From a candidate division TM6 bacterium UASB340 (GTDB lineage: Bacteria; Babelota; Babeliae; Babelales; UASB340), in NCBI GenBank assembly GCA_001468925.1, contig LDIX01000004.1, positions 77,715 through 141,714 of the forward strand: DNA of 64,000 nt, written 5' to 3'. The notes beneath the pieces were generated by a model. The model was not told the DNA's origin. It made no database searches and worked only from the letters and a program-made list of their open reading frames with translations. The position numbers were made by a program, and so were the translations under genes. Shown piece after piece: positions 2,083 to 36,443 of the stretch. The first letter of the stretch is position 1; every line of letters begins with the position of its first letter.

Positions 2083-3516
2083 TTAGTAAGCCTTTGCAAC
2101 CAACACATCAGTTTTAGCCGATTTGCCACAAGAAAAACAAGTTTTATTTTTTTTGCTATCAAGCAAGCATCTAATAGAAGCTTTATAATCTTTTAACTTA
2201 GTTTCACAATCTGATAACCCACACCAACCTGTTTGATATAAACCATTTTTTTCTTCAAGATTTTTTGCTATTTCGTTTAAATTATCAGCTTGATACCAAT
2301 TGTCGTTTAATCTTTTTTTTGCTTTTTCAAACAAACTTTTTTGAATATTTTCAAGCAATAAGTTAATTTCTTTATCAATGTTATCTATAGAAACAAACTG
2401 TTTTTTCTTTGTTTTATCCTGTTCAACTCTATTAACAAGAACAACCTGATTTTTTTCAATATCTTTAGGTCCTATCTCAAGTCTTACAGGAACACCTTTT
2501 AATTCCCATTTAAAAAATTTTGCACCCGGAGTTAATTGATCATCATTATCAATTTGTGCAAAAACACCATTATTTATAAGCAAATTTTTAATTTCTTCGG
2601 CTTTATTTATTACCAATTCTTTATCTTTTTCTTCTTTAAATATTGGTACAATTATAACCTGAATTGATGCAATTTTAGGTGGAATAATCAAACCGTTTTG
2701 ATCGCCATGAGTCATAATCAATGCACCAATAAGTCTTGTTGTAGCACCCCAAGAAGTGCAATATGGCGAACTTAAATTTCCATCTTTATCCTGAAATTGT
2801 ATATCAAAAGATTTTGAAAAACTGTGGGCCAAAACATGGCTTGTACAAAGTTGTAAAGCTTTACCATCTTGCATTAGACCTTCTATTGTAAATGTTCTAT
2901 CCGCTCCGGCAAAGCGCTCATTGTCGGATTTGATACCGGCTATCGCAGGAATAGCCAAATAATTTTCAACAAAATCTTTATAAATATCCAACATACGTTT
3001 TGAAAATTCAACAGCCTGCCCATGAGATTCATGAGCTGTGTGCCCTTCTTGCCATAAAAATTCTGTAGTTCGCAAAAATGGCCGAGTACGCATTTCCCAT
3101 CTGACAACATTAGCCCATTGATTTATTTTTAAAGGTAAATCTCTCCAAGATTTTATCCATTTTGAAAACATATAATAAATAATAGTTTCAGACGTTGGAC
3201 GAACAACCAACGGTTCTTCAAGCTCTTTTCCCCCGGCATGAGTTACAACAGCAAGCTCAGGCGAAAACCCTTCCACATGTTTTGCTTCTTTTTTCAAAAA
3301 GCTTTCCGGAATAAATAAAGGGAAATAGGCATTTTGCGTACCGGTTTCTTTAATTTTTTTATCCAATACTTTTTGTATATTTTCCCATATGGCATAAGAA
3401 TAAGGTCGAAAAACAAAACATCCTTTAACCGGACTTTGATCAACCAGTTCAGCTTCACTTAAAACATCTTGGTACCATTGTGCGAAATCTTTATTTATAT
3501 CCGAAAGTTTATTCAT
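2083..3516 (-). CDS. proS: Prolyl-tRNA synthetase, archaeal/eukaryote-like type (no INS editing domain, Cys-rich C-terminal domain ending in Tyr)
   Basis: 477 aa. Class II motifs ([45 protein letters not shown]). C-terminus is CGLSDCE...[18 protein letters not shown]. Confidence 0.9.
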
Positions 3517-3641: not shown

Positions 3642-5297
3642 ATGATTTTTTTACATGAACCTATAACCGTTATAAACCTAATTTTATGTTCTTTAACCGC
3701 TATCTTTAGTTTTTTTATATTCAGAAAAACTAAAGATCAATTTATTTTAAAAATAGCTTTATCTTTCTGCTTTTTTGCCATCGCTCATCTTATAACTCTA
3801 TTTCAACTTAATATAATTCTGACCACTCCATTAATTATAATAAGAACCTTGGCATATTTATTAATAATTTGGGGAATTTACAAAAAAATAGATTCTTATC
3901 TAAAATTAAAATTTTGGGGTTACTTAAGTATATTTATAGTTTTATTTTCAGTAATTTTTTTCATATCTTCAAAATATTTTTTAATAAAATTTAATCTATA
4001 TTTTTTATCTGAAGTAACAAATTTCATACTTTGCTTAACGGTAATACTTTTAGGTTATTTAGCAAATAAAAATCATAATTTTCCAATATTTAAATATATT
4101 GGAATAGGCTTTGCCATTTTTGCGTTTTTTCATTTAATAAAAATACTTAATATGGATCATATATTTCTTGTTCATTTAATAATTACAAGACTGATCGCAT
4201 ATTTTATAATATTTGCCGGAATATATTCAATAATCAAAGCTGAAACTTTAGATAAAATACTTCTTTATGCATCAAACGTTAAAGTTCAAATTACCATAAT
4301 TACACTAATGGTTGCTGTTTTGGTTTTTCTTTTTTATAAACAAAACAAAACATTTAGCTTTACTGATCCAAAACCGGATTTAAAAACAATAAAAGCTTTT
4401 TCCGATGAAAAAAACATCAATGAAATTAGAACCGGAATTTTTATTAAAAATTTCCCGGAATTCGATATAGTAAAAAATGAATTTACAGTAAATGCAATAG
4501 TTTGGTTTGAGTTTGATCCAAACTTAGTATCATTGGACAAAATTAAAAGCTTTTCCTTCGATAAAGGCAATATCCTAAAACAAGAGGATGTCCAGACAAA
4601 AATAATAAATGATAAACTATGGGCATATTTTGAAGTTATTGTAAGTTTTAGTAGCAATCTTGATTATAAACTATTTCCACTTGAGGATCATAAAATATAT
4701 CTAAAATTATTAAATAATAAAATGGATCCAAACTCAGAAATTCTAGTTTCATACAATACTGACTTACAAATAAGCGAAGAAATATTCACAAACGATTGGA
4801 AAATTATAAATACGGAAGTCGAATATGGTTATTCTGAGGAAATTCTTGATAAAAACGAACCGGACAAATCGACAAAATATCCTATAGTTTCTTTTGAACT
4901 TGATTTTCAAAAATCAGGTATTAGAAAAACATTGGCAATATTTTTACCACTTTATATGGTATTTTTCTTAAGTCTTTTTTCTTTAATTTTAAATACAAAA
5001 GACACAACGGGTATTCTATCTTTATCCGTAGGTAGTACAAGTGCATTGATCTTTGACCTTGTTGCAATTGAAAATATGAGTCCAAATGTACGATATTTTA
5101 CCGTATCAAATACAATTTACACGATATTACTAATAAGCTCTTTTATAATACTTTTATTGAATATTTACACTATAAAAAGTTTAAACATACAAAATCCTGA
5201 AAATGAAAAAAATCTAAAATTATTTAGAAGTTATTTTTTTATATTCTTTATACTTTCAACAATTCTTACAACCTATGCTTTAATATTTTATAAATAA
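3642..5297 (+). CDS. Pentameric ligand-gated ion channel (Cys-loop superfamily, GLIC/ELIC-like) homologue with an N-terminal polytopic membrane extension
   Basis: 551 aa. Extracellular-domain blocks IRTGIFIKNFPEFDIVKNEFTVNAIVWFEFDPNL and LDYKLFPLEDHKIYLKLLN (FPxD motif, no Cys pair). M1 LAIFLPLYMVFFLSLFSLIL, M2 GILSLSVGSTSALIFDLVAI, then SPNVRYFTVSNTIY, M3 and M4. Residues 1-232 add about 8 hydrophobic segments. Confidence 0.7.
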   Translation: MIFLHEPITVINLILCSLTAIFSFFIFRKTKDQFILKIALSFCFFAIAHLITLFQLNIILTTPLIIIRTLAYLLIIWGIYKKIDSYLKLKFWGYLSIFIVLFSVIFFISSKYFLIKFNLYFLSEVTNFILCLTVILLGYLANKNHNFPIFKYIGIGFAIFAFFHLIKILNMDHIFLVHLIITRLIAYFIIFAGIYSIIKAETLDKILLYASNVKVQITIITLMVAVLVFLFYKQNKTFSFTDPKPDLKTIKAFSDEKNINEIRTGIFIKNFPEFDIVKNEFTVNAIVWFEFDPNLVSLDKIKSFSFDKGNILKQEDVQTKIINDKLWAYFEVIVSFSSNLDYKLFPLEDHKIYLKLLNNKMDPNSEILVSYNTDLQISEEIFTNDWKIINTEVEYGYSEEILDKNEPDKSTKYPIVSFELDFQKSGIRKTLAIFLPLYMVFFLSLFSLILNTKDTTGILSLSVGSTSALIFDLVAIENMSPNVRYFTVSNTIYTILLISSFIILLLNIYTIKSLNIQNPENEKNLKLFRSYFFIFFILSTILTTYALIFYK

Positions 5298-5311
5298 ATT
5301 GGGAGAGCATT

Positions 5312-7486
5312 GTGAATAAATTATTTTTAATTTTTACTTTTTTATTTTTTATAAACTCAAAAGCAAATAGTGAAATAGATTTATTTCAAACTATTGATGA
5401 TATAAATCATTATGCAAATAAAATACCTGAATATCCTGAACCTGATAATAAAAATTGGTTAAAAGCCGATTATACAACTTTTTATAAAAAACAAACCCCG
5501 GATAAGCTTCAAGCTTTTGTGCAAAATATATATGACAAAATTACATTGCAAAGGGATACATGGGAATATAAAAAATTCAAACATTTACTCGAAAAAATAT
5601 CCGGTTTAAAATCTAAAGATCAAACTATAGATCAAAATAGTATAAAAATTACAGCTCAAAAAGATTCAACTTTTATAATTTTTACCGAAATTGGGGGAGC
5701 TTTTCACTCTTTGGTCAGAAGTCTAAACGAATTAATAAAGCTTGATATTTTAGACAAAAATCTAAACATAAAAAAAGAGAATTTTATTTTATTCAACGGT
5801 AATGTTCTTGGAAATTCACCATATATACTTGAAACATTTACATTAATACTGAAATTAATGGAAAAAAACCCAAAAAATATATTTTTTATTAAAGGCAAAT
5901 ACGAAATCGATGAAAATTGGCAAAATTTTGGACTAAAAAAAGAATTAATTATAAAATCCGGCACAAAAATTTTAGTAAAAATTCCACTAAAAGAAGAAAT
6001 TAACAAATTTTTAAGCAGTTTACCAATAGCCATTTATATAAATACTGACAAAAACAAAAACGATTTCATACGCATTTCATATTTTAATAGAAGTTTTTCA
6101 AAAATAATTGAAAAAGAAAATGTCATTGCAATTATAAATGGTGATAACAATAATATTACAAAACATAAAAAAACAGATGGTTTGTTTGAACTTTTTCCTG
6201 ATAAAGGAGCTACTGCCTGGTCTACAATATCCGGAGCAACAAAATATTCTCAAAAAATTTTTCAGTTCAAAAATGATGCTTTTGTAATACTAAAGCCAAT
6301 AGATAACAGCTTAGATTTATATTATAAAGACGCTAATTTGATAAAAGAGTTTGATAAAAAACAACTAAGTTTACTTTCACAAAAAACTGATACTCAAAAA
6401 GAGTTTATTACTGAAAAAGAAAAATCAAGTGAAATATTAATCGGGACTACAATGGATTTTTCCGGTGAAGATGCAAATATTTCAAGAGATGTATTGAAAG
6501 GTTTGCACCTGGTAATAAATAAAATTAATTCCAATGGCGGAATAAATGGCAAAAAAATAAAATTGGTCCATCTTGATAATAAGTATGATCCACAGTTGGC
6601 CGCTAAAAATGTTCAATTATTAATAGATGCCGGAATAGATAAACTTTTGTGCCCAATAGGCAGCTACCAATTCAAGGGATACATAGATTTTATAAAAAAC
6701 GGCAAAATTACCGTTTATTTTCCTGAAGTCACTTCACCTGAATACAGAAACAATAATTTAAATCATATTGTGCATTTTTTTGCAACATCCGATAGGGAGT
6801 CTGAAATACTTACAAACTATTTATTGAAAAAATTTTCACCAAATAAAATAGGAATATTTTATGAAGAAGAAACATTTAGTAAAAAATCTGCTGAAAAAGT
6901 AATTGAAATACTCACAAAAAATAATTTGCTAAAAGACAAAAACTGGGTTGAAGCTACTCATTTGCCCAAATCCGTTGACATTAAAGATGCCGCAAAAAAA
7001 ATTATCACCTTTAATCCGGAAGTTATTTTTTTACTTTCATCAGAAATAGCAATACAAAATTTAATTAATAGTTTGGGTATGGAATTTTTATTTAATAAAA
7101 TAATTCTTGGAATTAGTACATGTTCGGGATCTGCATTTAAAACATTTTTAAAAGAAAAAAAGCTAAAATTTATAAATACACAACTTACACCGGATCCAAT
7201 AAAAAGCGATATTGAGCTTGTTAAAGAATTTGTCACCGATACAACAAAAGCCGGCGAACCTTTAAGCACATTTATACTTGAAGGTTATATGGCAGCAAGT
7301 GTATTTTTTGATATTCTTAAAAAAATACCGGAACCAATTACAAATGAAAAAATTTTGGCTGAAATGGAAAATATAAAAAATCAAAATTATAAAGGTTTAA
7401 TGCTAAACTTTAACCCGGAAAGAAGAGAAATATTTAATACTGTCTGGCTCGATACCGGTGATGAAGTTATAATGAAAAATGAGTAA
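5312..7486 (+). CDS. Secreted fusion protein: degenerate (catalytically dead) PPP-type metallophosphatase domain plus C-terminal type-I periplasmic binding domain (LivK/ANF-receptor-like)
   Basis: 724 aa, GTG start 4 nt after GGGAGAG. Signal peptide MNKLFLIFTFLFFINSKANS. The PPP motifs are replaced: TEIGG for GDIHG, FNGNVLGN for LGDFVDKG, IKGKYE for LKGNHE. C-terminal ILIGTTMDFSGEDANISRDVLKGLHLVINKINSNGGINGKKIKLVHLDNKYDP is typical of LivK-family PBP1. Confidence 0.7.
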   Translation: MNKLFLIFTFLFFINSKANSEIDLFQTIDDINHYANKIPEYPEPDNKNWLKADYTTFYKKQTPDKLQAFVQNIYDKITLQRDTWEYKKFKHLLEKISGLKSKDQTIDQNSIKITAQKDSTFIIFTEIGGAFHSLVRSLNELIKLDILDKNLNIKKENFILFNGNVLGNSPYILETFTLILKLMEKNPKNIFFIKGKYEIDENWQNFGLKKELIIKSGTKILVKIPLKEEINKFLSSLPIAIYINTDKNKNDFIRISYFNRSFSKIIEKENVIAIINGDNNNITKHKKTDGLFELFPDKGATAWSTISGATKYSQKIFQFKNDAFVILKPIDNSLDLYYKDANLIKEFDKKQLSLLSQKTDTQKEFITEKEKSSEILIGTTMDFSGEDANISRDVLKGLHLVINKINSNGGINGKKIKLVHLDNKYDPQLAAKNVQLLIDAGIDKLLCPIGSYQFKGYIDFIKNGKITVYFPEVTSPEYRNNNLNHIVHFFATSDRESEILTNYLLKKFSPNKIGIFYEEETFSKKSAEKVIEILTKNNLLKDKNWVEATHLPKSVDIKDAAKKIITFNPEVIFLLSSEIAIQNLINSLGMEFLFNKIILGISTCSGSAFKTFLKEKKLKFINTQLTPDPIKSDIELVKEFVTDTTKAGEPLSTFILEGYMAASVFFDILKKIPEPITNEKILAEMENIKNQNYKGLMLNFNPERREIFNTVWLDTGDEVIMKNE

Positions 7487-10917: not shown

Positions 10918-12465
10918 TTATTTTGCGAATTCAATTATTCGCTTCTCTCTTATAACATTAACCTTTATCTGTCCGGGAAAATTGAGTTCCGATTCAACTT
11001 TTTTAGCAATATCTCTTGCAAGCATTGCCGCTTTATCATCATCCATTGTAACTTCATCAACAATTACTCGAACCTCTCTTCCGGCTTGTAACGCATATGC
11101 TTTTTTAACACCATCAAAACTTGTTGCTATATCTTCAAGTTGTTCTAAGCGTTTTATATAAGTGGTAAGTGTTTCGCGTCTGGCACCGGGTCTTGATGCT
11201 GAAATGGCATCTGCTATATGTGTAATTAATCCATAAATTGTTTTTGCTGGAATTTCATCATGATGACTCGCTATTGCATTTACAACAATAGGATCTTCAC
11301 CATATTTTTTAGCCAAATCTGCACCGATCATTGCGTGAGGTCCTTCAACTTCGGCAGATACAGCTTTTCCTATATCGTGTAAAAGACCGCAACGAGCCGC
11401 AATATCAGGATCCAATCCAAGTTCATTCGCAACCATTCTTGCAAAATATGCGACTTCTTTACTATGTACAAGATTATTTTGTGTATAACTTGTTCTAAAA
11501 TGCAAAGAACCTAAAAGTTTAACCAATTCGGGATGAACACCCCTAAACCCAAACTCCAAAACAGCTTGGCGACCAATTTCTTCGATATTTTGATCTATTT
11601 CTTCTTGGCATTTTGCAACAACTTCTTCAATTCTTGTTGGATTAATTCGACCATCCTGAATTAATTTATCCAAAGCTCTTTTTGCAACTTCCCTTCTTAT
11701 AGGATTAAAACCTGAAATAGTTATAATTTCAGGAGTATCTCCAATAACAAATTCCATTCCGGTTGCCATTTCTAAAGCTTTTATATTTCTTCCCTCTTTA
11801 CCAATTATTCGTCCCTTCATGTCTTCGTTTGGTAAATTAACAATACTTGAAGAGTGTAAAGTCACCTGGTCAGCAAGATATCTTTGCATTGCAGAAGTTA
11901 AAATTTCGATAGATTTATCTTTTGCGATTATATTAGTTTCTTCGTCCACTTTTGAAAGCCATTTTTGTTTTTCAAGTTTTACCTCTTTTTCCATCGCCTC
12001 AATCAAAATTTTGCGGGCTTCATCTTGACTCATACCGCCAACTTTTTCAAGTTTTATTACAAGATCATTGTAAAGTTTTTTCAACTTTGCTTCATCAAAT
12101 CCTAATGCATCAAGGCGCCTGGACATATCACGTTCTTTTTGTTGTAACTCTTTTCTTAGATCATCTAAAAGAACTTCTCGCTGTTCTATTGCATCTTCTT
12201 TTTTTTGCAACTTATGTTCAATACGTTGCTGTTCAATTTTTTCTTTTTTAATTTCCAAATCGAAATCGCTTCTTTTTTTATAAAGCTCTCTTTTAAGATT
12301 TGCCAAAGCTTCGCGTTTTTCATTTTCTGCAGCTTCTTTAGCATCGGCCAATAATTTTTGCGCCTCAAATTTTATTTTATAAAAGCTTTCTTTTTTTGTT
12401 TTAAAATAAAGAAATATTGATATGGCTCCTAATAAAAGCCCTGAAAAAAATATGACTATTAACAT
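10918..12465 (-). CDS. rny: Ribonuclease Y
   Basis: 515 aa. N-terminal TM, coiled coil, KH domain (MKGRIIGKEGRNIKALE), HD domain (LLHDIGKA...ASHHDE). Confidence 0.95.
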   Translation of the reverse strand: MLIVIFFSGLLLGAISIFLYFKTKKESFYKIKFEAQKLLADAKEAAENEKREALANLKRELYKKRSDFDLEIKKEKIEQQRIEHKLQKKEDAIEQREVLLDDLRKELQQKERDMSRRLDALGFDEAKLKKLYNDLVIKLEKVGGMSQDEARKILIEAMEKEVKLEKQKWLSKVDEETNIIAKDKSIEILTSAMQRYLADQVTLHSSSIVNLPNEDMKGRIIGKEGRNIKALEMATGMEFVIGDTPEIITISGFNPIRREVAKRALDKLIQDGRINPTRIEEVVAKCQEEIDQNIEEIGRQAVLEFGFRGVHPELVKLLGSLHFRTSYTQNNLVHSKEVAYFARMVANELGLDPDIAARCGLLHDIGKAVSAEVEGPHAMIGADLAKKYGEDPIVVNAIASHHDEIPAKTIYGLITHIADAISASRPGARRETLTTYIKRLEQLEDIATSFDGVKKAYALQAGREVRVIVDEVTMDDDKAAMLARDIAKKVESELNFPGQIKVNVIREKRIIEFAK

Positions 12466-12496
12466 TTTATAATTCCCTTAATTAACAAATTATCCC

Positions 12497-12538
12497 AAAA
12501 AAAAAATTAACATTAAGACATCAACCTTAATGTTAATT
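12497..12538 (-). terminator. Rho-independent terminator after zapA
   Basis: 13-bp stem AATTAACATTAAG / CTTAATGTTAATT (12505-12517 and 12526-12538). On the minus strand it is followed by a T10 run (complement of 12497-12506). Confidence 0.75.
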
Positions 12539-12588
12539 GTATAAAAAGGAACTATAATATAGAAAAATATATAAAAAGTAGTAATTTT

Positions 12589-12867
12589 TTAGGCGAGCTC
12601 TGAATCCAATAAATTCCCCAGCTTTAAAACTTTTTGCTGCAAAATTCCCAGATTGTCATTATTTTGTTTTAATTCTTTTGCCAACTCCAAAGCTAACATA
12701 ACGGCTGTGATATACCCATCATTTGTATTCATAGCCGATGCTATTTCTTTCATTTTTTTGTCAACATATTGTACCGCAAAAAGAACGTCGGACTCATTGT
12801 CATCAGTAGCAAAAGTATAATTTTTGCCAAAAATAACCGCCTGAATTTTTTTTAATTCTTTTTCCAT
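12589..12867 (-). CDS. zapA: Cell division protein ZapA
   Basis: 92 aa. VIFGKNYTFATDDNESDVLFAVQYVDKKMKEI follows the ZapA pattern (I-x-G-x-x-Y ... A-x-x-(L/V)-D). Confidence 0.7.
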   Translation of the reverse strand: MEKELKKIQAVIFGKNYTFATDDNESDVLFAVQYVDKKMKEIASAMNTNDGYITAVMLALELAKELKQNNDNLGILQQKVLKLGNLLDSELA

Positions 12868-12874
12868 AATTAAA

Positions 12875-13135
12875 TTACTTTACCACTTCTTTATTTTTCT
12901 CTTCGAGCGAGCTAATGCTATCAAGTAAATTTTTAATAGAATCTTTTATAAGATCCTTTTCAAGCTCAAATCCTTCAGAAGTTTTTTCTTTTGTTATTAA
13001 TGCCTGCTCAAGTTGCACGCACTTTGACAATAACTTATCGTTTTCTTTTTTCAACTCACTATTTTTATTTTGTAAGTCTTTGTTCTTCTGAACGATTTGA
13101 AGAACTTTTACCTCTAGCTCCTCTAACTGTTTCAT
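12875..13135 (-). CDS. Small coiled-coil protein, ZapB-like (tentative)
   Basis: 86 aa, almost all heptad-like coiled coil (LEELEVKVLQIVQKNKDLQNKNSELKKENDKL). Sits immediately upstream of zapA. Confidence 0.4.
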   Translation of the reverse strand: MKQLEELEVKVLQIVQKNKDLQNKNSELKKENDKLLSKCVQLEQALITKEKTSEGFELEKDLIKDSIKNLLDSISSLEEKNKEVVK

Positions 13136-13225
13136 TTTTCTACCTTTTTATACAATCAAAGGTTAATAAATTGACACTCGACATACAAAAATTTTATTAT
13201 TTTCATATGTCGCATATCAAGTTTT

Positions 13226-13573
13226 TTACTTTTTCGCCAATTCTACCAATTTTGTAAAGGCTTTTGGCTCAAAAATAGCAAGCTGACTAAGCATCTTTCT
13301 ATTAATTTTTATATTTATTTTATCCAAAGCATTAATAAATTTACTGTAACTAATGCCATTTTTTTTACAAGCCGCACTAATTCTAGAAATAAAAAGAGCT
13401 CTAAAATCTCTTTTTTTCAATTTTCTACCAATAAATGCAAACTCCATAGCTCTTAAAAGAGTCTCTTGGGCTCTTGTAAAAACTTTACTACGCAATCCCC
13501 AAAAACCTTTTGCTTGTTTTAACACTCTTTTATGGCGTTTTTTTGTAACTGTGCCTCGTTTAATTCTGCTCAT
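13226..13573 (-). CDS. rplT: 50S ribosomal protein L20
   Basis: MSRIKRGTVTKKRHKRVLKQAKGFWG is the canonical L20 N-terminus. Confidence 0.95.
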   Translation of the reverse strand: MSRIKRGTVTKKRHKRVLKQAKGFWGLRSKVFTRAQETLLRAMEFAFIGRKLKKRDFRALFISRISAACKKNGISYSKFINALDKINIKINRKMLSQLAIFEPKAFTKLVELAKK

Positions 13574-13619
13574 AATTGTCCTTTGTCAATGCTCTATTTT
13601 TTATCATTTAATAATATAA

Positions 13620-13814
13620 CTAATCCGGCATCAATATGCTTATATTTTTAGCATTTGCGCCTTCAAGCAAAACACCATGTTTAGATTGTCTTACTCTTTT
13701 TGTGCTTTTCGCCCAAGAATGATGACGTCTATATGATTTTGCTCTTTTAATTTTTCCATTACCGGTCTTTCTAAATCTTTTTCTGCATCCAGCATGAGTT
13801 TTCATTTTTGGCAT
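13620..13814 (-). CDS. rpmI: 50S ribosomal protein L35
   Basis: [24 protein letters not shown] is canonical L35. Part of the infC-rpmI-rplT order. Confidence 0.95.
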
Positions 13815-13840
13815 ATTATGGTTTCCTTAAAAAACTAATT

Positions 13841-14410
13841 TTATTTCAAAAAATATATTTTGGACCAAAATGGACCAGCCTTTTGTTCTTTTTCTTCAAG
13901 CAAAGTTCCAATTTGCTGATCCGTTAAATCTTTATTTATTCTTTCAAACAGTCTTGCACCCAGTTCTTTGATCATTATAAATTCACGACCCCTAAACTGC
14001 AGTGTAAATTTTACTTTTTTACCGTCTTTCAAAAATTCAACAGCTTTTCTTAATTTCGTGTTGTAATCATTATCATCAATATTCGGCCTAAGTTTAACTT
14101 CTTTTATTTGTATAATTTTTTGTTTTTTCTTAGCATCACTAAGCTGTTTTTTCTTTGCATACAAAAATTTACCAAAATCCATTATTTTGGCAATAATTAC
14201 ATTATCTTTTTCGCCTACTTGCACCAAATCAAGCCCGGCATCTTGAGCCGCTCGAAGAGCTTCAAATTTTGATATAACACCAAAATTTTCACCATCTGCG
14301 CCGATTACCTGCATTTGAGAAGCTCTAATTTTCTCATTTACAAAATAACTTGTAGCCAAAAGCTTATCACCACGCTCCGGCTGCCCATTTCCCTGTTTAA
14401 ATTTACTCAC
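13841..14410 (-). CDS. infC: Translation initiation factor IF-3
   Basis: VNEKIRASQMQVIGADGENFGVIS...DLVQVGE...KEVKLRPNIDDNDYNTKL. The true start may be a non-ATG codon, as is usual for infC. Confidence 0.9.
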   Translation of the reverse strand: MSKFKQGNGQPERGDKLLATSYFVNEKIRASQMQVIGADGENFGVISKFEALRAAQDAGLDLVQVGEKDNVIIAKIMDFGKFLYAKKKQLSDAKKKQKIIQIKEVKLRPNIDDNDYNTKLRKAVEFLKDGKKVKFTLQFRGREFIMIKELGARLFERINKDLTDQQIGTLLEEKEQKAGPFWSKIYFLK

Positions 14411-21681: not shown

Positions 21682-21801
21682 TATATAATTAAAATATTTA
21701 AGTAATTGAGTAAAATGTAGAGCTTAATTTATTTATAAAAAGATAGATCGAAAGTGCGCGGCGCCATACATCCCTTTTTAGGTTTTTTGATTTTCAAGAT
21801 C

Positions 21802-21856
21802 TTTTAAAAAATATTTTAAAAATTAAAATAAATTTAAAAATTAAAAATATAAAAAA
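21802..21856. repeat. 55-nt tract of 100% A+T with reiterated TTAAAAAT-like units
   Basis: TTTTAAAAAATATTTTAAAAATTAAAATAAATTTAAAAATTAAAAATATAAAAAA, read directly. Confidence 0.9.
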
Positions 21857-21862
21857 CGTTCT

Positions 21863-21958
21863 ATTGGTTGTTTCTTTTTAATCTTACGCGAGTGCGTATT
21901 ATTGGTTATTGGTTATTACTTATACTAATTAATCTATTACTTATCAATATAATTGGTT
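21863..21958. repeat. Four copies of the heptamer ATTGGTT (21863, 21901, 21908 tandem, 21952)
   Basis: Read directly. This part of the strand is otherwise G-poor. Confidence 0.85.
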
Positions 21959-22160
21959 ACTAATTTATCTATCTAAAAATTCTAACACTATATGTTATAT
22001 GAATACAGGTATAACAATATACCCATTTTATGTTTTATTCTTTTTCTTTTATTTTTATAATCCAATATTTTATTATCTATCTATATATATATCTATTTAT
22101 ACCTATATCTATTTATTTTTATACTTAATCCATAGTTAACCAGAAGTTACTCCAATACTT

Positions 22161-22263
22161 ACTTCTATATACTTCTATATATTTATACTTATATTTCTTA
22201 TATATATACTTTTATATACTTTCTTCTTTTATTACTTGTTCTTTTATTACTTGTTCTTTTATT
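22161..22263. repeat. Short tandem repeats: ACTTCTATAT x2 (22161-22180) and CTTTTATTACTTGTT x2.5 (22226-22263)
   Basis: Read directly. Confidence 0.9.
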
Positions 22264-22293
22264 CTTTTTTTTATTCCTTATTCTTTTAATTTC

Positions 22294-22499
22294 ACGGAGT
22301 CGATTACCTCCTGCTACCAATAAAACATCCAGATCAATACTTTAAAACAACGCTCTCAAATTTGCCAAAAAACAAAACTTTCAAATCTCTCCAATACCAA
22401 ACTAGCCCCCTACTCATTCCATCACCCAACACACTCAATAAAACCCAACCCCTCCCCCATTTCCTTTCTTATAAAAAGAGCAGGAGGTAGAGACGGAGT
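22294..22499. repeat. 192-bp C/A-rich, G-poor element bounded by 11-bp inverted repeats and flanked by a 7-bp direct repeat (MITE-like footprint or long-range RNA helix)
   Basis: ACGGAGT (22294-22300), cgat, TACCTCCTGCT (22305-22315), 163-nt interior, AGCAGGAGGTA (22479-22489), gag, ACGGAGT (22493-22499). Confidence 0.8.
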
Positions 22500-22731
22500 G
22501 CGGAATCGCGTTTTTTCAAATAAAACCAAGTTTCGCTTCGTACATACAACCCTGCAACAAATGAGGATAAGTTATTTAGATTATTAAATACACCTTAAAT
22601 TATACGACACAGATTTAACTATAATTTAAGATTTTTAATAAATTTTGGGGTCAAAAATCCTAATCACTCCAAAAACCTAGGCCCTTAAAACCAATCTAAG
22701 TCCGTTACGCTAAGATTTTATATAAAAACTC

Positions 22732-22760
22732 TTGACAAATCTACATTGCAAGACTAAGAT
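22732..22760 (+). promoter_or_regulatory. sigma70-type promoter for dnaK (TTGACA-N17-TAAGAT) with overlapping palindromes
   Basis: TTGACA at 22732-22737, a 17-nt spacer, TAAGAT at 22755-22760. Perfect palindrome CTAAGA-TAT-TCTTAG at 22754-22768. CTTGACA-N8-TTGCAAG at 22731-22752. Confidence 0.6.
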
Positions 22761-22929
22761 ATTCTTAGTTTTTTATGATTACAAGTTAAGCTAAAACACA
22801 AGCAAATCACGCGCCATCGAAAAATAACAAGATAAACAAAACTTGTTGAAAATAAAAAAAATATTTTAAAATATTTTGAAATTAAAACTTTAGTTATTTA
22901 CTATAAAACTTTAACGAAAAGGGATTTAA

Positions 22930-24843
22930 ATGGCAAAAATTATAGGTATAGACTTAGGAACCACAAACTCTGTCGTTTCATTTATGGAAGGCGGCGTAGC
23001 CAAAGTTATTCCAAATCAAGAAGGTAATAACACTACTCCTTCTATTGTTGCATACACCAAAGATGGTCAAAGATTGGTCGGATCCGTAGCAAAACGTCAG
23101 GCCGTAACAAATCCGGAAAATACAATTTTTTCCGCAAAAAGATATATTGGTAGAAAATTTTCAAGTTTAACAAAAGAAGAAGTTTCTCTAGCTCCATACA
23201 AACTTGTAGCCGGCAAAAATGACGATGTAGTAATAGAAATACGCGGTGAACAAATAACACCGCAAGAAATTTCTGCTGCAGTTTTACAAAAATTAAAACA
23301 AGCCGCACAAGATTATATTGGGGAAACTATAACCGATGCAGTGATTACCGTTCCAGCATATTTTAACGATGCTCAAAGACAGGCAACAAAAGATGCCGGA
23401 ACAATTGCAGGCTTAAATGTTAAAAGAATTATTAATGAGCCAACAGCAGCTGCTCTTGCATACGGAATGGACAAAAAGAAAAATGAGACTATAGCCGTAT
23501 TTGACTTTGGTGGTGGTACATTTGATATTTCCATATTGGAAGTCGGTGATGGTGTTGTAGAAGTAAAATCCACAAATGGCGACACGCTTTTGGGTGGTGA
23601 CAATATCGATGCAAAATTAATCGATTATTTGGTTCAAGAGTTTAAAAAAGAAAATGGCATTGATCTTACAAAAGACAAGATGGCATTACAAAGACTTAAA
23701 GAAGCTGCTGAAAAAGCAAAGATTGAACTTTCAGCCACAACTGAAACGGAAATAAATCTACCATACATTACAGCAGATGCTAGCGGACCTAAACATTTAG
23801 TCATAAAATTGTCACGCGCAAAACTTGAAAATATTTGTGAAGATATATTTAAAAAGTTATTTATTCCTTGTGAAAAAGCTATCAAAGATGCCGGAATAGA
23901 AAAAAATCAAATTGATGAAGTTGTATTAGTTGGTGGTTCAACACGAATTCCTAAAGTTGTTGAATTGGTAAAAAACTTCTTTGGCAAAGAACCAAATAAA
24001 TCGGTAAACCCTGATGAAGTTGTTTCTATTGGCGCTGCAATTCAAGGTGGTGTTCTTGCAGGTGACGTTACAGATGTATTATTATTAGATGTCACCCCGC
24101 TTTCTCTTGGAATTGAAACAATGGGTGGAATTGCAACAAAATTAATAGAACGAAACACAACAATACCTACAAAAAAATCTCAAATTTTCTCAACAGCAGA
24201 AGACAATCAAACAGCAGTTGATATTCACATTGTTCAAGGTGAACGTGAATTTGCAAAAGATAATAAAACATTGGGAAGATTTAGACTCGATGGAATTCCT
24301 GCTGCTCCCAGAGGTATTCCACAAGTTGAAGTAACGTTCGATATCGATGCCAACGGCATAGTTCATGTTACTGCAAAAGATAAAGGCACAGGCAAAGAAC
24401 AACATATTACCATTTCAAATTCTTCAGGTCTTTCTAAAGAAGAAGTTGAAAATTTGGTAAAACAAGCGCAACAGCATGAAGCTGAAGATAAAAAACAAAA
24501 AGAAATTGTTGAAAAACGCAATGCTTTAGACAATATGATTATGTCTATAGAAAAAACATTAAAAGATAATAAAGAAAAACTTCCGGCTGATGAAGTCTCA
24601 AAAGTTGAAACTGCTTTAGAAGAAGCTCGTAAAGTATTTAAAGAATCTGAAAATGATGCTGAAAAACTACAAAAAGCGCATGATGATTTATTAGCCTCTT
24701 CACATAAAGTAGCTGAAATACTTTATAAAGAAGCTCAAAGTAAAACTACGCAAAATCAAGACAATAACCAAGATAACAGCACAGATAAAGATAAAAACTC
24801 CGGAGACACCGGGCCAATAGACGTTGATTCTGAGCAAAAGTAA
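22930..24843 (+). CDS. dnaK: Molecular chaperone DnaK (Hsp70)
   Basis: 637 aa. [18 protein letters not shown]-like [21 protein letters not shown]. Confidence 0.98.
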
Positions 24844-24864
24844 AAAAACTCAAATCTGTAAAAA

Positions 24865-24891
24865 GGGCCCAAAACATTGGGCCCTTTTTTT
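24865..24891 (+). terminator. Rho-independent terminator after dnaK
   Basis: GGGCCCAA-AACA-TTGGGCCC followed by T7. Confidence 0.9.
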
Positions 24892-24930
24892 GTGTCATAA
24901 AACAAATATATGCTTTTAAATTTTTAAAAA

Positions 24931-24959
24931 TTGACACCTGCTAGATCAAATATGCTAAT
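24931..24959 (+). promoter_or_regulatory. Candidate promoter for the small-ORF locus (TTGACA-N17-GCTAAT)
   Basis: TTGACA at 24931-24936 and GCTAAT at 24954-24959, preceded by TATG. Confidence 0.4.
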
Positions 24960-25010
24960 TTAAAAATAATATATATAAAAAAATTAAAAAAAGTTTAGGG
25001 AGACGTAAAA

Positions 25011-25220
25011 ATGATAAATCTAAGAAATATATATTCTATTCTTCTTGGTCCACCGATTTTAACAATACTAATTTTATCCGGTTGTTTTAAAAATAAAAAA
25101 GTTAATTGTAATAATAAAAATACTAAAAAAAGGGAGCTTTTATGCAAAAATGTTGCACAGAAAAAAAATGTAAGAAATGTGGACAGCCTGCATGCAAATG
25201 TAAATGTAAATAGTTACTAA
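25011..25220 (+). CDS. Small lipoprotein-like ORF (69 codons as written); the C-terminal half may be in the wrong frame
   Basis: ATG lies 7 nt after AGGGAGA. Signal peptide plus lipobox LILSGC. The A7 tract at 25125-25131 is the only place this frame can join the overlapping Cys-rich frame. Confidence 0.5.
   Translation: MINLRNIYSILLGPPILTILILSGCFKNKKVNCNNKNTKKRELLCKNVAQKKNVRNVDSLHANVNVNSY
25142..25213 (+). CDS. Overlapping 23-codon Cys/Lys-rich ORF (MQKCCTEKKCKKCGQPACKCKCK), either independent or the real C-terminus of the lipoprotein
   Basis: ATG lies 5 nt after AGGGAG (25131-25136). 7 Cys and 8 Lys in 23 residues. Frame is -1 relative to 25011..25220. Confidence 0.4.
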   Translation: MQKCCTEKKCKKCGQPACKCKCK

Positions 25221-25233
25221 CTAAAATTTACAT

Positions 25234-25270
25234 AAAAAAAGAGTGGATAAAATTTATCCACTCTTTTTTT
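25234..25270. terminator. Bidirectional rho-independent terminator between the small-ORF locus and the convergent M3 peptidase gene
   Basis: A7, then GAGTGGATA-AAATT-TATCCACTC, then T7 or more. Confidence 0.85.
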
Positions 25271-25295
25271 ATTAACGTTATATATTTTTCAATTT

Positions 25296-36368: not shown

Positions 36369-36443
36369 TGGGGCGTAGCCAAGTGGTACGGCAGCGGGTT
36401 TTGGATCCGCCATGCGAAGGTTCGAATCCTTCCGCCCCAACCA
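36369..36443 (+). tRNA. tRNA-Gln (anticodon UUG), CCA encoded
   Basis: Manual fold: acceptor TGGGGCG/CGCCCCA with U1:A72, D-arm GCCAAGTGGTACGGC, anticodon arm GCGGG-TTTTGGA-TCCGC (anticodon TTG), T-arm GAAGG-TTCGAAT-CCTTC, then ACCA. Confidence 0.9.

Follow-up and report, generated by a model that had tools for sequence, protein, structure and literature searches.

What is the repeat-bounded unit that lies upstream of dnaK in a genome of Candidatus Dependentiae (TM6)? Dependentiae are uncultivated, host-dependent bacteria, and the source genome has a G+C content of 28.5%. The unit sits in a 1.25-kb non-coding stretch within the 64,000 nt of DNA analyzed here (hereafter the window), in a region that also includes an A/T-only run of 55 nt and repeated boxes. 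On re-reading the sequence directly, the repeats and the interior lie exactly where the original prediction placed them: a left ACGGAGT (22294–22300) is followed by cgat and the left arm TACCTCCTGCT (22305–22315), then by a 163-nt interior (22316–22478), the right arm AGCAGGAGGTA (22479–22489), gag, and a second ACGGAGT (22493–22499). The interior (A65 C56 T37 G5) is indeed C-rich unlike its surroundings, with 34% C and 3% G, compared with 15.8% C and 12.7% G in the whole window. A GTG at 22498 starts a 29-codon ORF, VRNRVFSNKTKFRFVHTTLQQMRISYLDY*, that ends at 22587. With at most one mismatch, the 11-nt arm matches only two sites in 64 kb, where 0.17 matches are expected, a rarity that argues against a chance match and makes the inverted repeat more than a coincidence. 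The arms are also the sole 11-bp perfect inverted repeat in the window with at least five G/C and a spacing of 50–300 nt; the remaining 65 such inverted-repeat pairs are A/T-only or nearly so. Two readings of this layout had been proposed, a MITE or transposon with target-site duplication, and an RNA in which a long-range helix of the arms sequesters an SD sequence. We propose that the unit is most likely an undescribed structured RNA.

Pairing and covariation of the repeats

On comparative sequence evidence, each “direct repeat” belongs to one strand of a basal helix with pseudo-symmetry, and the “terminal inverted repeats” form a second helix, P2. The 5′ strand of the basal helix, CAC-GGA-GUC (22293–22301, plus strand), contains the left ACGGAGT, and the 3′ strand, GAC-GGA-GUG (22492–22500, plus strand), contains the right one. 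The two copies pair with each other to give P1 (CAC/GUG), a 3x3 purine loop (G-N-A/G-G-A), and P1b (GUC/GAC). A symmetric 3x3 loop of 5′-G-N-A and 5′-G-G-A would permit tandem G.A pairs. The 5′ arm of P2, UUACCUCCUGCU (22304–22315, plus strand), contains the left inverted repeat and its 3′ arm, AGCAGGAGGUAG (22479–22490, plus strand), the right one, both being delimited by the fold and by covariation. The core is thus an interrupted helix of ~18 bp, consisting of P1, the 3x3 loop, P1b, a small variable internal loop, and P2, which is 5–13 bp long across members.

Comparison among orthologous units (described below) bears on this fold. The sequence of P2 is wholly different between lineages, yet its pairing is kept. 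The 5′ strand of the basal helix has the consensus [C/A]ACGNAG[T/G]C, while the 3′ strand is the best-conserved segment of the unit: 10 of the 15 tabulated instances have exactly GACGGAGTG, the variants pairing with a matching change on the 5′ strand, and the 3′ motif GACGGAGUG is nearly invariant. Compensatory variants of the basal helix occur in L008, L013, L018, and L169. The outer pair of P1, C-G, is A-U in L018; its middle pair, A-U, is G-C in L008 and U-A in L013; and the middle pair of P1b, U-A, is C-G in L008 and L013 and A-U in L169. In L001, the P2 3′ arm has a 1-nt insertion (AGCAGGATGGTA) that is tolerated as a bulge.

Since MAFFT on full-length units fails to register the non-homologous arms, we used hand-registered structural alignments (A3 and A5) of N-padded mini-sequences with trimmed interiors. 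In a 14-sequence alignment of this kind, 94.0% of the cells assigned to pairs are paired, compared with 34–45% when the partner strand is slid by 1–3 columns, and double-sided compensatory changes are found at 15 of the 18 pairs, including all 12 in P2; these pair counts lean towards structure, given the manual registration, the trimming and padding, and the removal of three bulged bases (in L006, L011, and L008). None of 500 shuffles reached the observed value by any measure. Two checks are independent of the bias in A3 and A5. RNAalifold on an unbiased MAFFT alignment of the untrimmed sequences recovered P1 and P1b, and an alignment-free test of P2, using the 25 nt inside each motif and 1000 shuffles, gave p < 0.05 in 11 of 15 members with a mean z of −3.1. 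The duplex test of the window copy gave z = −5.2.

Almost all pairs are Watson-Crick, the sole G.U inside a helix being in L008. Three cells are wobbles, all of them G.U on the plus strand, and there are no A.C mismatches. These G.U cells, the purine-rich loop of the plus strand, and a U-run in three genomes weakly suggest that the plus strand, which is also the dnaK strand, is the one that is read. In L005, L007, and L169, the invariant 3′ motif can pair instead with a perfect downstream complement. Reading both ACGGA motifs as CsrA-type sites was dropped on inspection, as the 5′ GGA is GAA, GUA, or AAA in 9 of 16 members.

Orthologous units and the earlier readings

Orthologous single-copy units are carried by 15 further Dependentiae genomes, whose DnaK proteins are 69–98% identical, and together with the window this gives 16 loci (L001, L004, L005, L006, L007, L008, L011, L012, L013, L017, L018, L031, L088, L166, and L169 being the others). 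L009, L010, L014–L016, L087, and L089 lack the unit. In 14 of the 15 further genomes that have it, it precedes dnaK and shares its strand. The exception is L017, a weak match (E = 0.19) accepted on motif detail, where the unit is convergent with the dnaK 3′ end and precedes no gene, a placement that argues for an independent gene. INDEPENDENCE from dnaK is backed by this placement and by the other gene that lies between the unit and dnaK in L012 and L011. Only L001 aligns with the window across the whole region; the unit is 93.8% identical between the two, compared with 60–70% in both flanks. A search of 1.23 Mb on both strands with a motif regex and a covariance model (R1) gave matches in Dependentiae only, and none at E < 1 in 448 kb of mostly other phyla. 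R1 and a second model, R2, were built from trimmed seeds and under-score members with long interiors, so that their negatives cover short forms only; even with filters off, R2 missed the window’s own copy at E < 1. Two R2 matches were set aside, one in L098 as a false positive inside a coding region, and one in L106 as unconvincing.

These orthologues bear on the first of the earlier readings, in which 11-bp terminal inverted repeats would bound a MITE or transposon remnant and the 7-bp repeat would be its duplicated target site. Like MITEs, the unit of this one genome is ~200 bp long, with inverted repeats at its ends and short direct repeats outside them, and in the window alone the layout resembles an insertion footprint. 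Unlike MITEs, it is single-copy and syntenic across deep divergence, with one unit in every related locus and, in all but one of the 15 other carrier genomes, an unchanged syntenic position. Orthology and synteny persist where DnaK is just 69–84% identical, which makes the unit ancient and vertically inherited. Its arms covary rather than being conserved, having unrelated sequences between genomes while complementarity is kept, and the supposed direct repeats are base-paired with each other and mostly unequal in relatives: in 10 of the 15 tabulated units, the 7-mer on the left is not the same as the one on the right (for example, ACGAAGT and ACGGAGT), and where the two change they do so in a complementary, not a parallel, manner (L169, L013, and L018). 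The further copies that a mobile element would leave did not turn up, as BLAST of the unit against the 64-kb window returned the self match only, and the arm and GACGGAGTG occur nowhere else in it. No empty site was seen; L001, the sole relative alignable across the region, carries the unit. There is no transposase nearby. The mobile-element reading is already contradicted by this sequence comparison, and we consider its probability negligible. The case carries a caution, in that direct repeats flanking inverted repeats in one genome can be the strands of a pseudo-symmetric RNA helix, and a transposon footprint and an RNA helix are separated only through comparison with other genomes.

The RNA reading in the original prediction fares differently in its two parts. 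The long-range helix of the arms stands and is kept by covariation, whereas the SD-sequestering riboswitch or thermometer controlling the 29-codon ORF (22498–22587) does not. It was suggested by the window, where an anti-SD-like ACCUCCU pairs with a perfect AGGAGGU 9 nt before the GTG, and it recalls thermometers such as ROSE and fourU in having a helix with an SD-like sequence near a heat-shock gene. Unlike in ROSE and fourU, the helix does not contain the dnaK ribosome-binding site, and the SD-like sequence is not conserved. The SD/anti-SD core is limited to the window, L001, and L008, and in L001 AGGAGG is interrupted by the 1-nt insertion; the corresponding arm elsewhere is GGCAGAAU, ACAGAAGA, GACAAAA, or AUUGGCUUCGGGU. 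The GTG is simply the last three letters of GGAGUG, which is invariant and pairs in P1. The small ORF is cut to 11 codons by a frameshift in L001, in a region that is 70% identical with 12 gap columns, and has no counterpart in more distant genomes. The SD/anti-SD content is therefore incidental, and sequestration, likewise already contradicted by the sequences of relatives, is very improbable.

The C-rich interior and the flanks of the unit

The interior (22316–22478, plus strand) is C/A-rich, G-depleted, and predicted to be unpaired in both the MFE and centroid structures of the window copy. Its length is highly variable between genomes, with a loop of ~15 to 163 nt (~15–22 nt in L012, L031, and L011) and a stretch of 47–191 nt between the two motifs in orthologues. 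The C content of the interior is 26–51% in all members, compared with 14–23% across the loci, and G is usually scarce; an apical region of such composition cannot fold on itself. The interiors together hold 38 CCCC runs, compared with ~2.5 expected, and only 6 GGGG, although the positions of the C-runs are not conserved and they are absent in L012, L006, and L007. Between the window and L001, the interior is 92.6% identical and without indels, compared with 60–70% in the flanks, and by this sequence comparison it is under purifying selection between close relatives. The recurrence of C-rich composition in distant members likewise argues that the interior is not a free spacer. Against this, the best conservation is in the paired base and not in the C-rich loop, which is unusual for an sRNA that pairs through a seed, and the loop could be a spacer only.

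Depletion of G extends hundreds of nucleotides upstream, beyond the unit as originally delimited. Directly 5′ of the hairpin is a G-poor, T/C-rich tract (22020–22292, plus strand; 6 G in 274 nt), which includes three copies of a 15-nt tandem repeat, TTCTTTTATTACTTG, at 22224–22288 (repeat family D2), and the two longest G-free runs of the window (22033–22134 and 22147–22237) are found here, just upstream of the unit. The tract is 60–65% identical to that of L001 with many indels, and among orthologues its composition is kept while its sequence is not: in most of them, the 250 nt that precede the unit are rich in T and contain 2–12% G, and the equivalent in L017 is A/C-rich and likewise G-poor. 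A simple C-rich-loop sRNA leaves this upstream depletion unexplained.

Downstream, a semi-conserved 3′ tail (22501–22518, plus strand) consists of CGGAAUCGCG followed by U6, that is, a weak hairpin and a U-run that may mark an RNA 3′ end. GUGC[A/G]AAAUCGCG recurs in L001, L006, L169, L005, L004, and L031, and the U-run follows the tail in the window, L001, and L006 only. A terminator scan did not call the tail, whose resemblance to a terminator is weak and limited to one lineage. Directly upstream of the hairpin, where the flank is conserved in composition only, no conserved −35/−10 was found. Between the helix and the dnaK start codon are more than 400 nt, which include dnaK’s own conserved promoter. 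Other candidate features of the region were rejected. A second hairpin around box 8 (ATTAT[G/A]CGACAC) fits the window and L007, while in other genomes the box pairs in other ways; the idea that box 8 is a general promoter signal was dropped, there being three occurrences in 64 kb, one of them inside recA; and a small ORF of the conserved block upstream, ending in ...YIPF*, was discarded because L005 and L166 do not keep its stop codon.

Possible roles of the unit and related systems

Our preferred reading, to which we give a probability of roughly 40%, is that the unit is a single-copy, vertically inherited candidate structured RNA of Candidatus Dependentiae, a helical clamp presenting a C-rich single strand. 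The basal helix with its invariant purine loop would serve for recognition or stability, most likely by binding a protein, and the clamp would keep the C-rich segment exposed and single-stranded. In this state, the segment could interact with a G-rich partner, for example the purine-rich ribosome-binding regions of mRNAs. C-rich-loop regulatory RNAs of Gram-positive bacteria act in this way. In 6C (PMC6486639), RoxS (PMC5419742), and IsrR (PMC9410917), unpaired C-rich loops pair with G-rich mRNA sites, and the G-rich targets of the C-rich segments of 6C, RoxS/RsaE, and IsrR are located at ribosome-binding sites or close to them (PMC6486639, PMC5419742, PMC9410917). As in 6C of Actinobacteria and RoxS/RsaE and IsrR of Firmicutes, which show unpaired C-rich segments, often CCCC, on stable stems in a low-G context, unpaired C-rich segments on a stem closed by the covarying P2 are found here by structure prediction and alignment, and the unit is likewise single-copy and vertically inherited within its lineage. 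Unlike these RNAs, it has its conserved nucleotides in the basal helix and not in the C-rich loop, one very large C-rich loop of variable length in place of several small hairpin loops, and an unrelated phylum as its home; neither a promoter nor a terminator was clearly recognized, and the unit does not match these RNAs, or any other family, in Rfam sequence or structure. Rfam gave no match at the gathering threshold, and at E ≤ 10 the 1.36-kb region gave only two unrelated weak matches on the minus strand.

The alternative pairing of the 3′ motif raises a further, unlikely reading, in which the unit is the sensor/effector core of a Dependentiae-specific riboregulator. Here GACGGAGUG would toggle between the 5′ motif, pairing with which would close the clamp and expose the C-rich strand, and the downstream complement, which is preserved by covariation in L005, L007, and L169; temperature, a protein, or a ligand would be the driver. 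If true, this would mean that a phylum of uncultivated bacteria, obligately associated with hosts, has a new class of switch RNA.

The composition of the locus can also be read in terms of transcription termination. A Rho-type factor-dependent terminator or attenuator would insulate dnaK, with the G-poor RNA as a rut-like loading site and the hairpin as a pause or release site, so that transcription reading through from genes upstream, or coming from a distal promoter, would be stopped ahead of the dnaK promoter, which is tightly controlled. An established property of rut sites is that they are unstructured and rich in C but poor in G. As in Rho-dependent terminators, extended G-poor RNA with C > G, predicted to be unstructured, precedes a structured region between transcription units, and G-depletion with C > G is kept over 200–500 nt (upstream tract and interior) while sequence and tandem repeats turn over fast, which indicates selection on composition and not on sequence. 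The unit faces dnaK and its promoter in 14 of the 15 other genomes, in L017 it faces the dnaK 3′ end, where read-through would yield antisense dnaK RNA, and the alternative pairing in L005, L007, and L169 is switch-like. We nevertheless regard this reading as doubtful. C-rich and G-poor RNA of at least ~70 nt, predicted to be unpaired, is present in the window (34% C and 3% G in the interior; 2% G in the tract before it) and missing from L031, L011, and L012, whose 15–22 nt loops are too small for rut, and some members have hardly any C-rich segment; the tract upstream is rich in T, not in C (12–28%); and the genes upstream in L001, L005, and L169 already have strong intrinsic terminators, located before the conserved upstream blocks. 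Moreover, rut sites have no conserved secondary-structure module, and a generic pause hairpin needs neither the invariant purine internal loop and covarying helices of the unit nor the near-invariant GACGGAGUG. In another reading, only the basal helix would matter: P1, the purine loop, P1b, and P2 would be where a specific ribonuclease or RNA-binding protein docks or processes the RNA, and the C-rich interior would be a tolerated expansion segment. The pseudo-two-fold symmetry suggests that this protein may be a dimer. Conservation peaks in the base, where GACGGAGUG is almost invariant and the G-N-A/G-G-A loop is kept; the stretch between the motifs varies from 47 to 191 nt, with a small loop in L012, L031, and L011; and the inner 5–7 nt of both strands are identical when read 5′ to 3′ (ACGGAGU and ACGGAGU), as is typical of homodimer sites. 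A merely tolerated expansion fits poorly with an interior that is 92.6% identical without indels between close relatives whose flanks are at 60–70%, and with the recurrence of C-rich interiors in distant members; in addition, the symmetry is broken in L169 and L013, and the locus, whose flanking genes vary, offers no candidate protein. We see a protein-binding site without a role for the interior as a minority possibility.

Compensatory changes would be expected equally for a DNA hairpin, and the unit might act as DNA, as a hairpin or cruciform whose loop has C-runs on the plus strand and G-runs on the minus strand, with G-quadruplex or i-motif potential, in replication, recombination, or promoter architecture. 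The predominance of Watson-Crick pairs (with a single intra-helix G.U, in L008), at least four G-runs on the minus strand of the interior in the window, L088, L008, L005, and L017, and the A/T-only run and repeated boxes of the region are in keeping with this. The G-run clusters are missing, though, from the short forms and from L006, L007, and L012, the orientation to dnaK is fixed in 14 of the 15 other genomes, and the purine-rich 3x3 loop and the G.U pairs on the plus strand only are features of RNA. A replication origin was rejected, since GC skew does not change sign at the locus: the 4-kb windows on both sides of 22 kb are negative and follow gene orientation. Overall, we think a DNA-level role rather improbable. 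The enterobacterial “dnaK motif” (PBC-38-1), a conserved structured candidate in the intergenic region upstream of dnaK, is suggested to act possibly as ssDNA (PMC11109978); it is known in Enterobacteriaceae only, between dnaK and satP, and overlaps the promoter (PMC11109978). The unit resembles PBC-38-1 in being a conserved structured candidate upstream of dnaK, and differs in its phylum and in being set apart from the dnaK promoter, on its upstream side, with no similarity established between the two.

Our literature search found nothing on ncRNAs of Dependentiae, nor an applicable dnaK-associated motif. The candidate clamp is of interest as a phylum-restricted element that would combine a covarying clamp, an invariant purine loop, and a C-rich single strand beside the main chaperone gene, and it offers a concrete candidate for experimental RNA biology in Dependentiae and for a new family entry. 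Regarding the rest of the window, an exact-protein look-up of its DnaK returned no record, a tRNA/tmRNA scan identified a tRNA-Gln at 36369 only, and the “ORF-free gap” at 12465–13841 consists of rpmI, rplT, and two short ORFs.

A hairpin element conserved in Dependentiae

The non-coding stretch at 21682-22929 of the window (1248 bp) lies between a 462-aa ORF, in which no Pfam domain was found, and dnaK (22930-24843), encoded on the same strand as the hairpin element considered here (the unit, 22293-22500). DnaK homologues assign the window to Candidatus Dependentiae / Babeliales (TM6), with a top match of 98% identity and the next at ~83%. Direct reading of the sequence bore out the layout in the original prediction at every position: on the + strand, a left "direct repeat" ACGGAGT (22294-22300) is followed by cgat, the left arm TACCTCCTGCT (22305-22315), an interior of 163 nt (22316-22478), the right arm AGCAGGAGGTA (22479-22489), gag and a right "direct repeat" ACGGAGT (22493-22499), with a GTG at 22498 as the first codon of a 29-codon ORF. 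No other perfect 11-bp inverted repeat in the window has 5 or more G/C together with a spacing of 50-300 nt, and no further arm copy with one mismatch or fewer was found in the 64 kb (0.17 matches expected).

The dnaK loci of relatives (L numbers) came from an exact-protein look-up and from DnaK-based scans of genome and metagenome collections, and the unit was found in 16 distinct Dependentiae loci. The closest relative, L001 (DnaK 98%), can be aligned over the entire intergenic region. The unit is 93.8% identical between the two (interior 92.6%, zero indels), whereas its flanks (the T-rich tract on one side, the sequence 3' of it on the other) reach only 60-70% and contain many indels; the unit, interior included, is therefore under purifying selection. 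In more distant Dependentiae, with DnaK at 69-84%, an orthologous unit occupies the same position, with a 5' motif [C/A]ACGNAG[T/G]C and an almost invariant 3' motif, GACGGAGTG; the arms between the motifs are unrelated in sequence among genomes but keep their complementarity, and the motifs are 47 to 191 nt apart across members. A two-motif regex applied to both strands of 1.23 Mb of fetched loci matched only upstream of dnaK in Dependentiae, in every case on the dnaK strand, and R1, a covariance model built from trimmed seeds and informative on short forms only, gave no match at E < 1 in 448 kb of mostly non-Dependentiae loci. A short-form model detected no unit in L009, L010, L014-L016, L087, L089, L090, L093, L095-L098 and L106, which is not proof of absence, since this model misses long-interior copies and some loci have little upstream flank. 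No Rfam family matched the unit, and our literature searches turned up no account of it. The unit is structured, conserved and single-copy, is specific to Dependentiae, and is a candidate for a new RNA family in an uncultivated phylum.

Helical structure and covariation

The predicted fold is common to every member: a short basal helix P1 (CAC/GUG), an internal loop, a second short helix P1b (GUC/GAC), a short variable internal loop, the helix P2 formed by the arms, and the apical region. The loop between P1 and P1b is a symmetric 3x3 loop, 5'-G-N-A over 5'-G-G-A, and ACGGAGU set antiparallel to ACGGAGU gives A-U, C-G, three purine-purine oppositions, G-C and U-A. The "direct repeats" are therefore the two strands of one pseudo-symmetric helix. 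The arm pairs of P2 (5' / 3') are UACCUCCUGCU / AGCAGGAGGUA in the window, AUUCUGCC / GGCAGAAU in L004, GGAAaUUCUGC / GCAGAAgUUCC in L005, UCUUCUGU / ACAGAAGA in L006, CUUCUGCU / AGCAGAAG in L007, UUUUGUC / GACAAAA in L088, CCCUCAUCCUA / UAGGAUGAGGG in L031, CCGCCAGCCUU / AAGGCUcGGCGG in L011, ACCCGAAGCCAAU / AUUGGCUUCGGGU in L012, CCCCCAC / GUGGGGG in L013, and GACCUCCUGCCC / GGGCGGGAGGGUC in L008. Compensatory changes also occur in the basal helices: the middle pair of P1 (mostly A-U) is G-C in L008 and U-A in L013, its outer pair (mostly C-G) is A-U in L018, and the middle pair of P1b (mostly U-A) is C-G in L008 and L013 and A-U in L169.

In a 14-sequence alignment registered by hand, by eye, 94.0% of cells were paired, compared with 34-45% when the partner strand was slid by 1-3 columns; 15 of the 18 pairs had double-sided changes, and none of 500 shuffles matched the observed value on any measure. 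Because this alignment was built by eye, two independent checks were run. P1 and P1b were recovered when RNAalifold was given an ordinary MAFFT alignment of the untrimmed sequences, and an alignment-free test of P2, in which the 25 nt internal to each motif were scored for duplex energy against 1000 shuffles, reached p < 0.05 for 11 of the 15 members (mean z -3.1).

Both readings first offered for the element are essentially excluded; the observation is confirmed, and its interpretation is replaced. A MITE insertion fails because the unit is single-copy within the 64-kb window and orthologous over deep divergence, its termini covary rather than being conserved, the flanking repeats are unequal in most genomes, and no transposase is nearby. 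Nor are the repeats a target-site duplication: in L169 and L013 they are altered at different, complementary positions, as predicted by base pairing and not by a duplication or a repeated protein site. From the alternative RNA reading, the pairing of the arms survives, as a helix kept by compensatory change, and the SD-sequestering switch does not, because the SD is not conserved, the GTG is part of P1 and the ORF lacks a counterpart. SD/anti-SD arms are confined to the window, L008 and, imperfectly, L001, where one extra nucleotide in the right arm (AGCAGGATGGTA) breaks AGGAGG; the supposed GTG start codon consists of the last three nucleotides of the invariant GGAGUG; and the 29-codon ORF is cut to 11 codons by indels in L001 and is absent from other genomes. 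In this lineage the 5' arm and its flank (22305-22318, GAUUACCUCCUGCU) resemble the 3' tail of 16S rRNA (GAUCACCUCCUUUCU). L008 likewise carries ACCUCCUGCC; since the other members do not, the likeness is probably drift in a pyrimidine-rich arm.

The C-rich interior and possible modes of action

The interior does differ in composition from its surroundings, as first described, with A 65, C 56, T 37 and G 5 in 163 nt against 15.8% C and 12.7% G in the window overall (G+C 28.5%). Interior C content is 26-51% in every member versus 14-23% locus-wide, CCCC runs number 38 where about 2.5 are expected (GGGG only 6), and in AT-rich genomes the interior is strongly G-poor as well. The window's interior is wholly unpaired in the predicted fold. 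The L005/L007/L169 clade keeps small hairpins there, e.g. UUUGCC-CUCA-GGCAAA, and in their window counterparts the G residues are gone.

We infer that the unit acts as RNA from the + strand. This strand is weakly favoured, since the three wobble cells of the 14-sequence alignment are all G.U on it, with zero A.C mismatches, the internal loop is purine-rich on it, and the unit is followed by a semi-conserved tail, GUGC[A/G]AAAUCGCG, to which the window, L001 and L006 add a U-run. The unit need not be a dnaK leader: an extra gene separates it from dnaK in L012 and L011, and in L017 a copy with every hallmark (AAC-GUA-GAC ... GUC-GGA-GUU, two CCCCC runs in the interior), accepted for its motif details at E = 0.19, is found beyond the 3' end of dnaK on the other strand, convergent with it and preceding no gene. 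In the window, dnaK has its own canonical promoter, TTGACA-N17-TAAGAT, at 22732-22760 (98.8% identity to L001), so the unit lies >230 nt upstream of it.

We propose, with a probability of about 0.4 for the mechanism as a whole, that the basal helix, together with the invariant purine loop, would serve as a recognition or stability module and would display the C-rich, G-depleted stretch in an accessible, single-stranded form that could then pair with G-rich partners. In 6C (PMC6486639), RoxS/RsaE (PMC5419742) and IsrR (PMC9410917), C-rich loops pair with such partners, and the strand may work by analogy with them. The long C > G tract could act as a rut site in a Rho-type terminator or attenuator that insulates dnaK, which we consider unlikely; it is also improbable that the unit is a protein-binding element whose loop is merely tolerated. 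A hairpin or G-quadruplex element acting at the DNA level is very unlikely, and the locus shows no skew switch suggestive of an origin.

Besides pairing in P1 and P1b, the 3' motif can form a 16-18-bp hairpin with a perfect, covarying downstream complement in L005 (3436-3497), L007 (2476-2524) and L169 (3400-3455); in L169 motif and complement have both changed. The hairpin may be an alternative pairing, specific to that clade, that would compete with P1/P1b. The unit is moderately interesting, and would be more so if this pairing were a regulatory switch.

The G-poor tract and the dnaK neighbourhood

G-depletion extends far beyond the element first described: the two longest G-free runs in the window (22033-22134 and 22147-22237) are directly upstream of the unit. 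In most genomes the 250 nt upstream are T-rich and G-poor, abound in lineage-specific tandem repeats and cannot be aligned; in L017 the tract is A/C-rich and likewise G-poor. The short tandem repeat differs from genome to genome: TTCTTTTATTACTTG three times in the window (22224-22288), CTGTCCGAA six times in L169 (about 3030-3085) and CATTCTTCAATT three times in L005 (about 3190-3250); sequence turns over rapidly at constant composition. Upstream of the tract, a conserved block (21759-21908) contains a palindromic GC hexamer whose sequence varies among genomes (GGCGCC, CCGCGG, CGCGCG), then TACATCCC-TTTT(T)AGG, TTGATTTTCAAGAwCTTTTAA, a 55-nt A/T-only run (21802-21856) and two CGTnnTATTGGTTA 38 nt apart. 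The block could serve the G-poor transcript as promoter or as a site where a regulator binds.

The dnaK promoter, together with its spacer AAATCTACAT, is kept among close Dependentiae (window 22706-22771), a direct repeat ACTAAGAT lies on both sides of the promoter (about 22710 and 22753), and the L005 spacer is an inverted repeat, CTTGA-N10-TCAAG; the promoter looks to be overlapped by a putative operator, possibly for a heat-shock repressor. A conserved box, ATTAT[G/A]CGACAC (window 22597-22613), precedes the dnaK start by 130-370 nt. It is present also in Dependentiae in which no hairpin was found (L015, L010, L090, L096), and L012 has it twice. The closest genomes have a -10-like hexamer at a fixed 10 nt after the box, and no consistent hairpin was found around it. 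A near-match, ATATGCGACATATG, follows rplT at 13215 (- strand).

In L001 a 1129-aa ankyrin-repeat gene (4096-7485), missing from the window (cf. 24844-25295), lies between dnaK and the M3 peptidase gene, and on the upstream side of the conserved non-coding region the gene content varies by relative (LRR, ankyrin and hypothetical proteins); this makes the surroundings of dnaK a hotspot of variable effector-like genes. Elsewhere in the window, an apparent 1.4-kb ORF-free gap downstream of infC (12465-13841, - strand) is an ordinary small-gene operon of rpmI (L35), rplT (L20) and two short coiled-coil ORFs.
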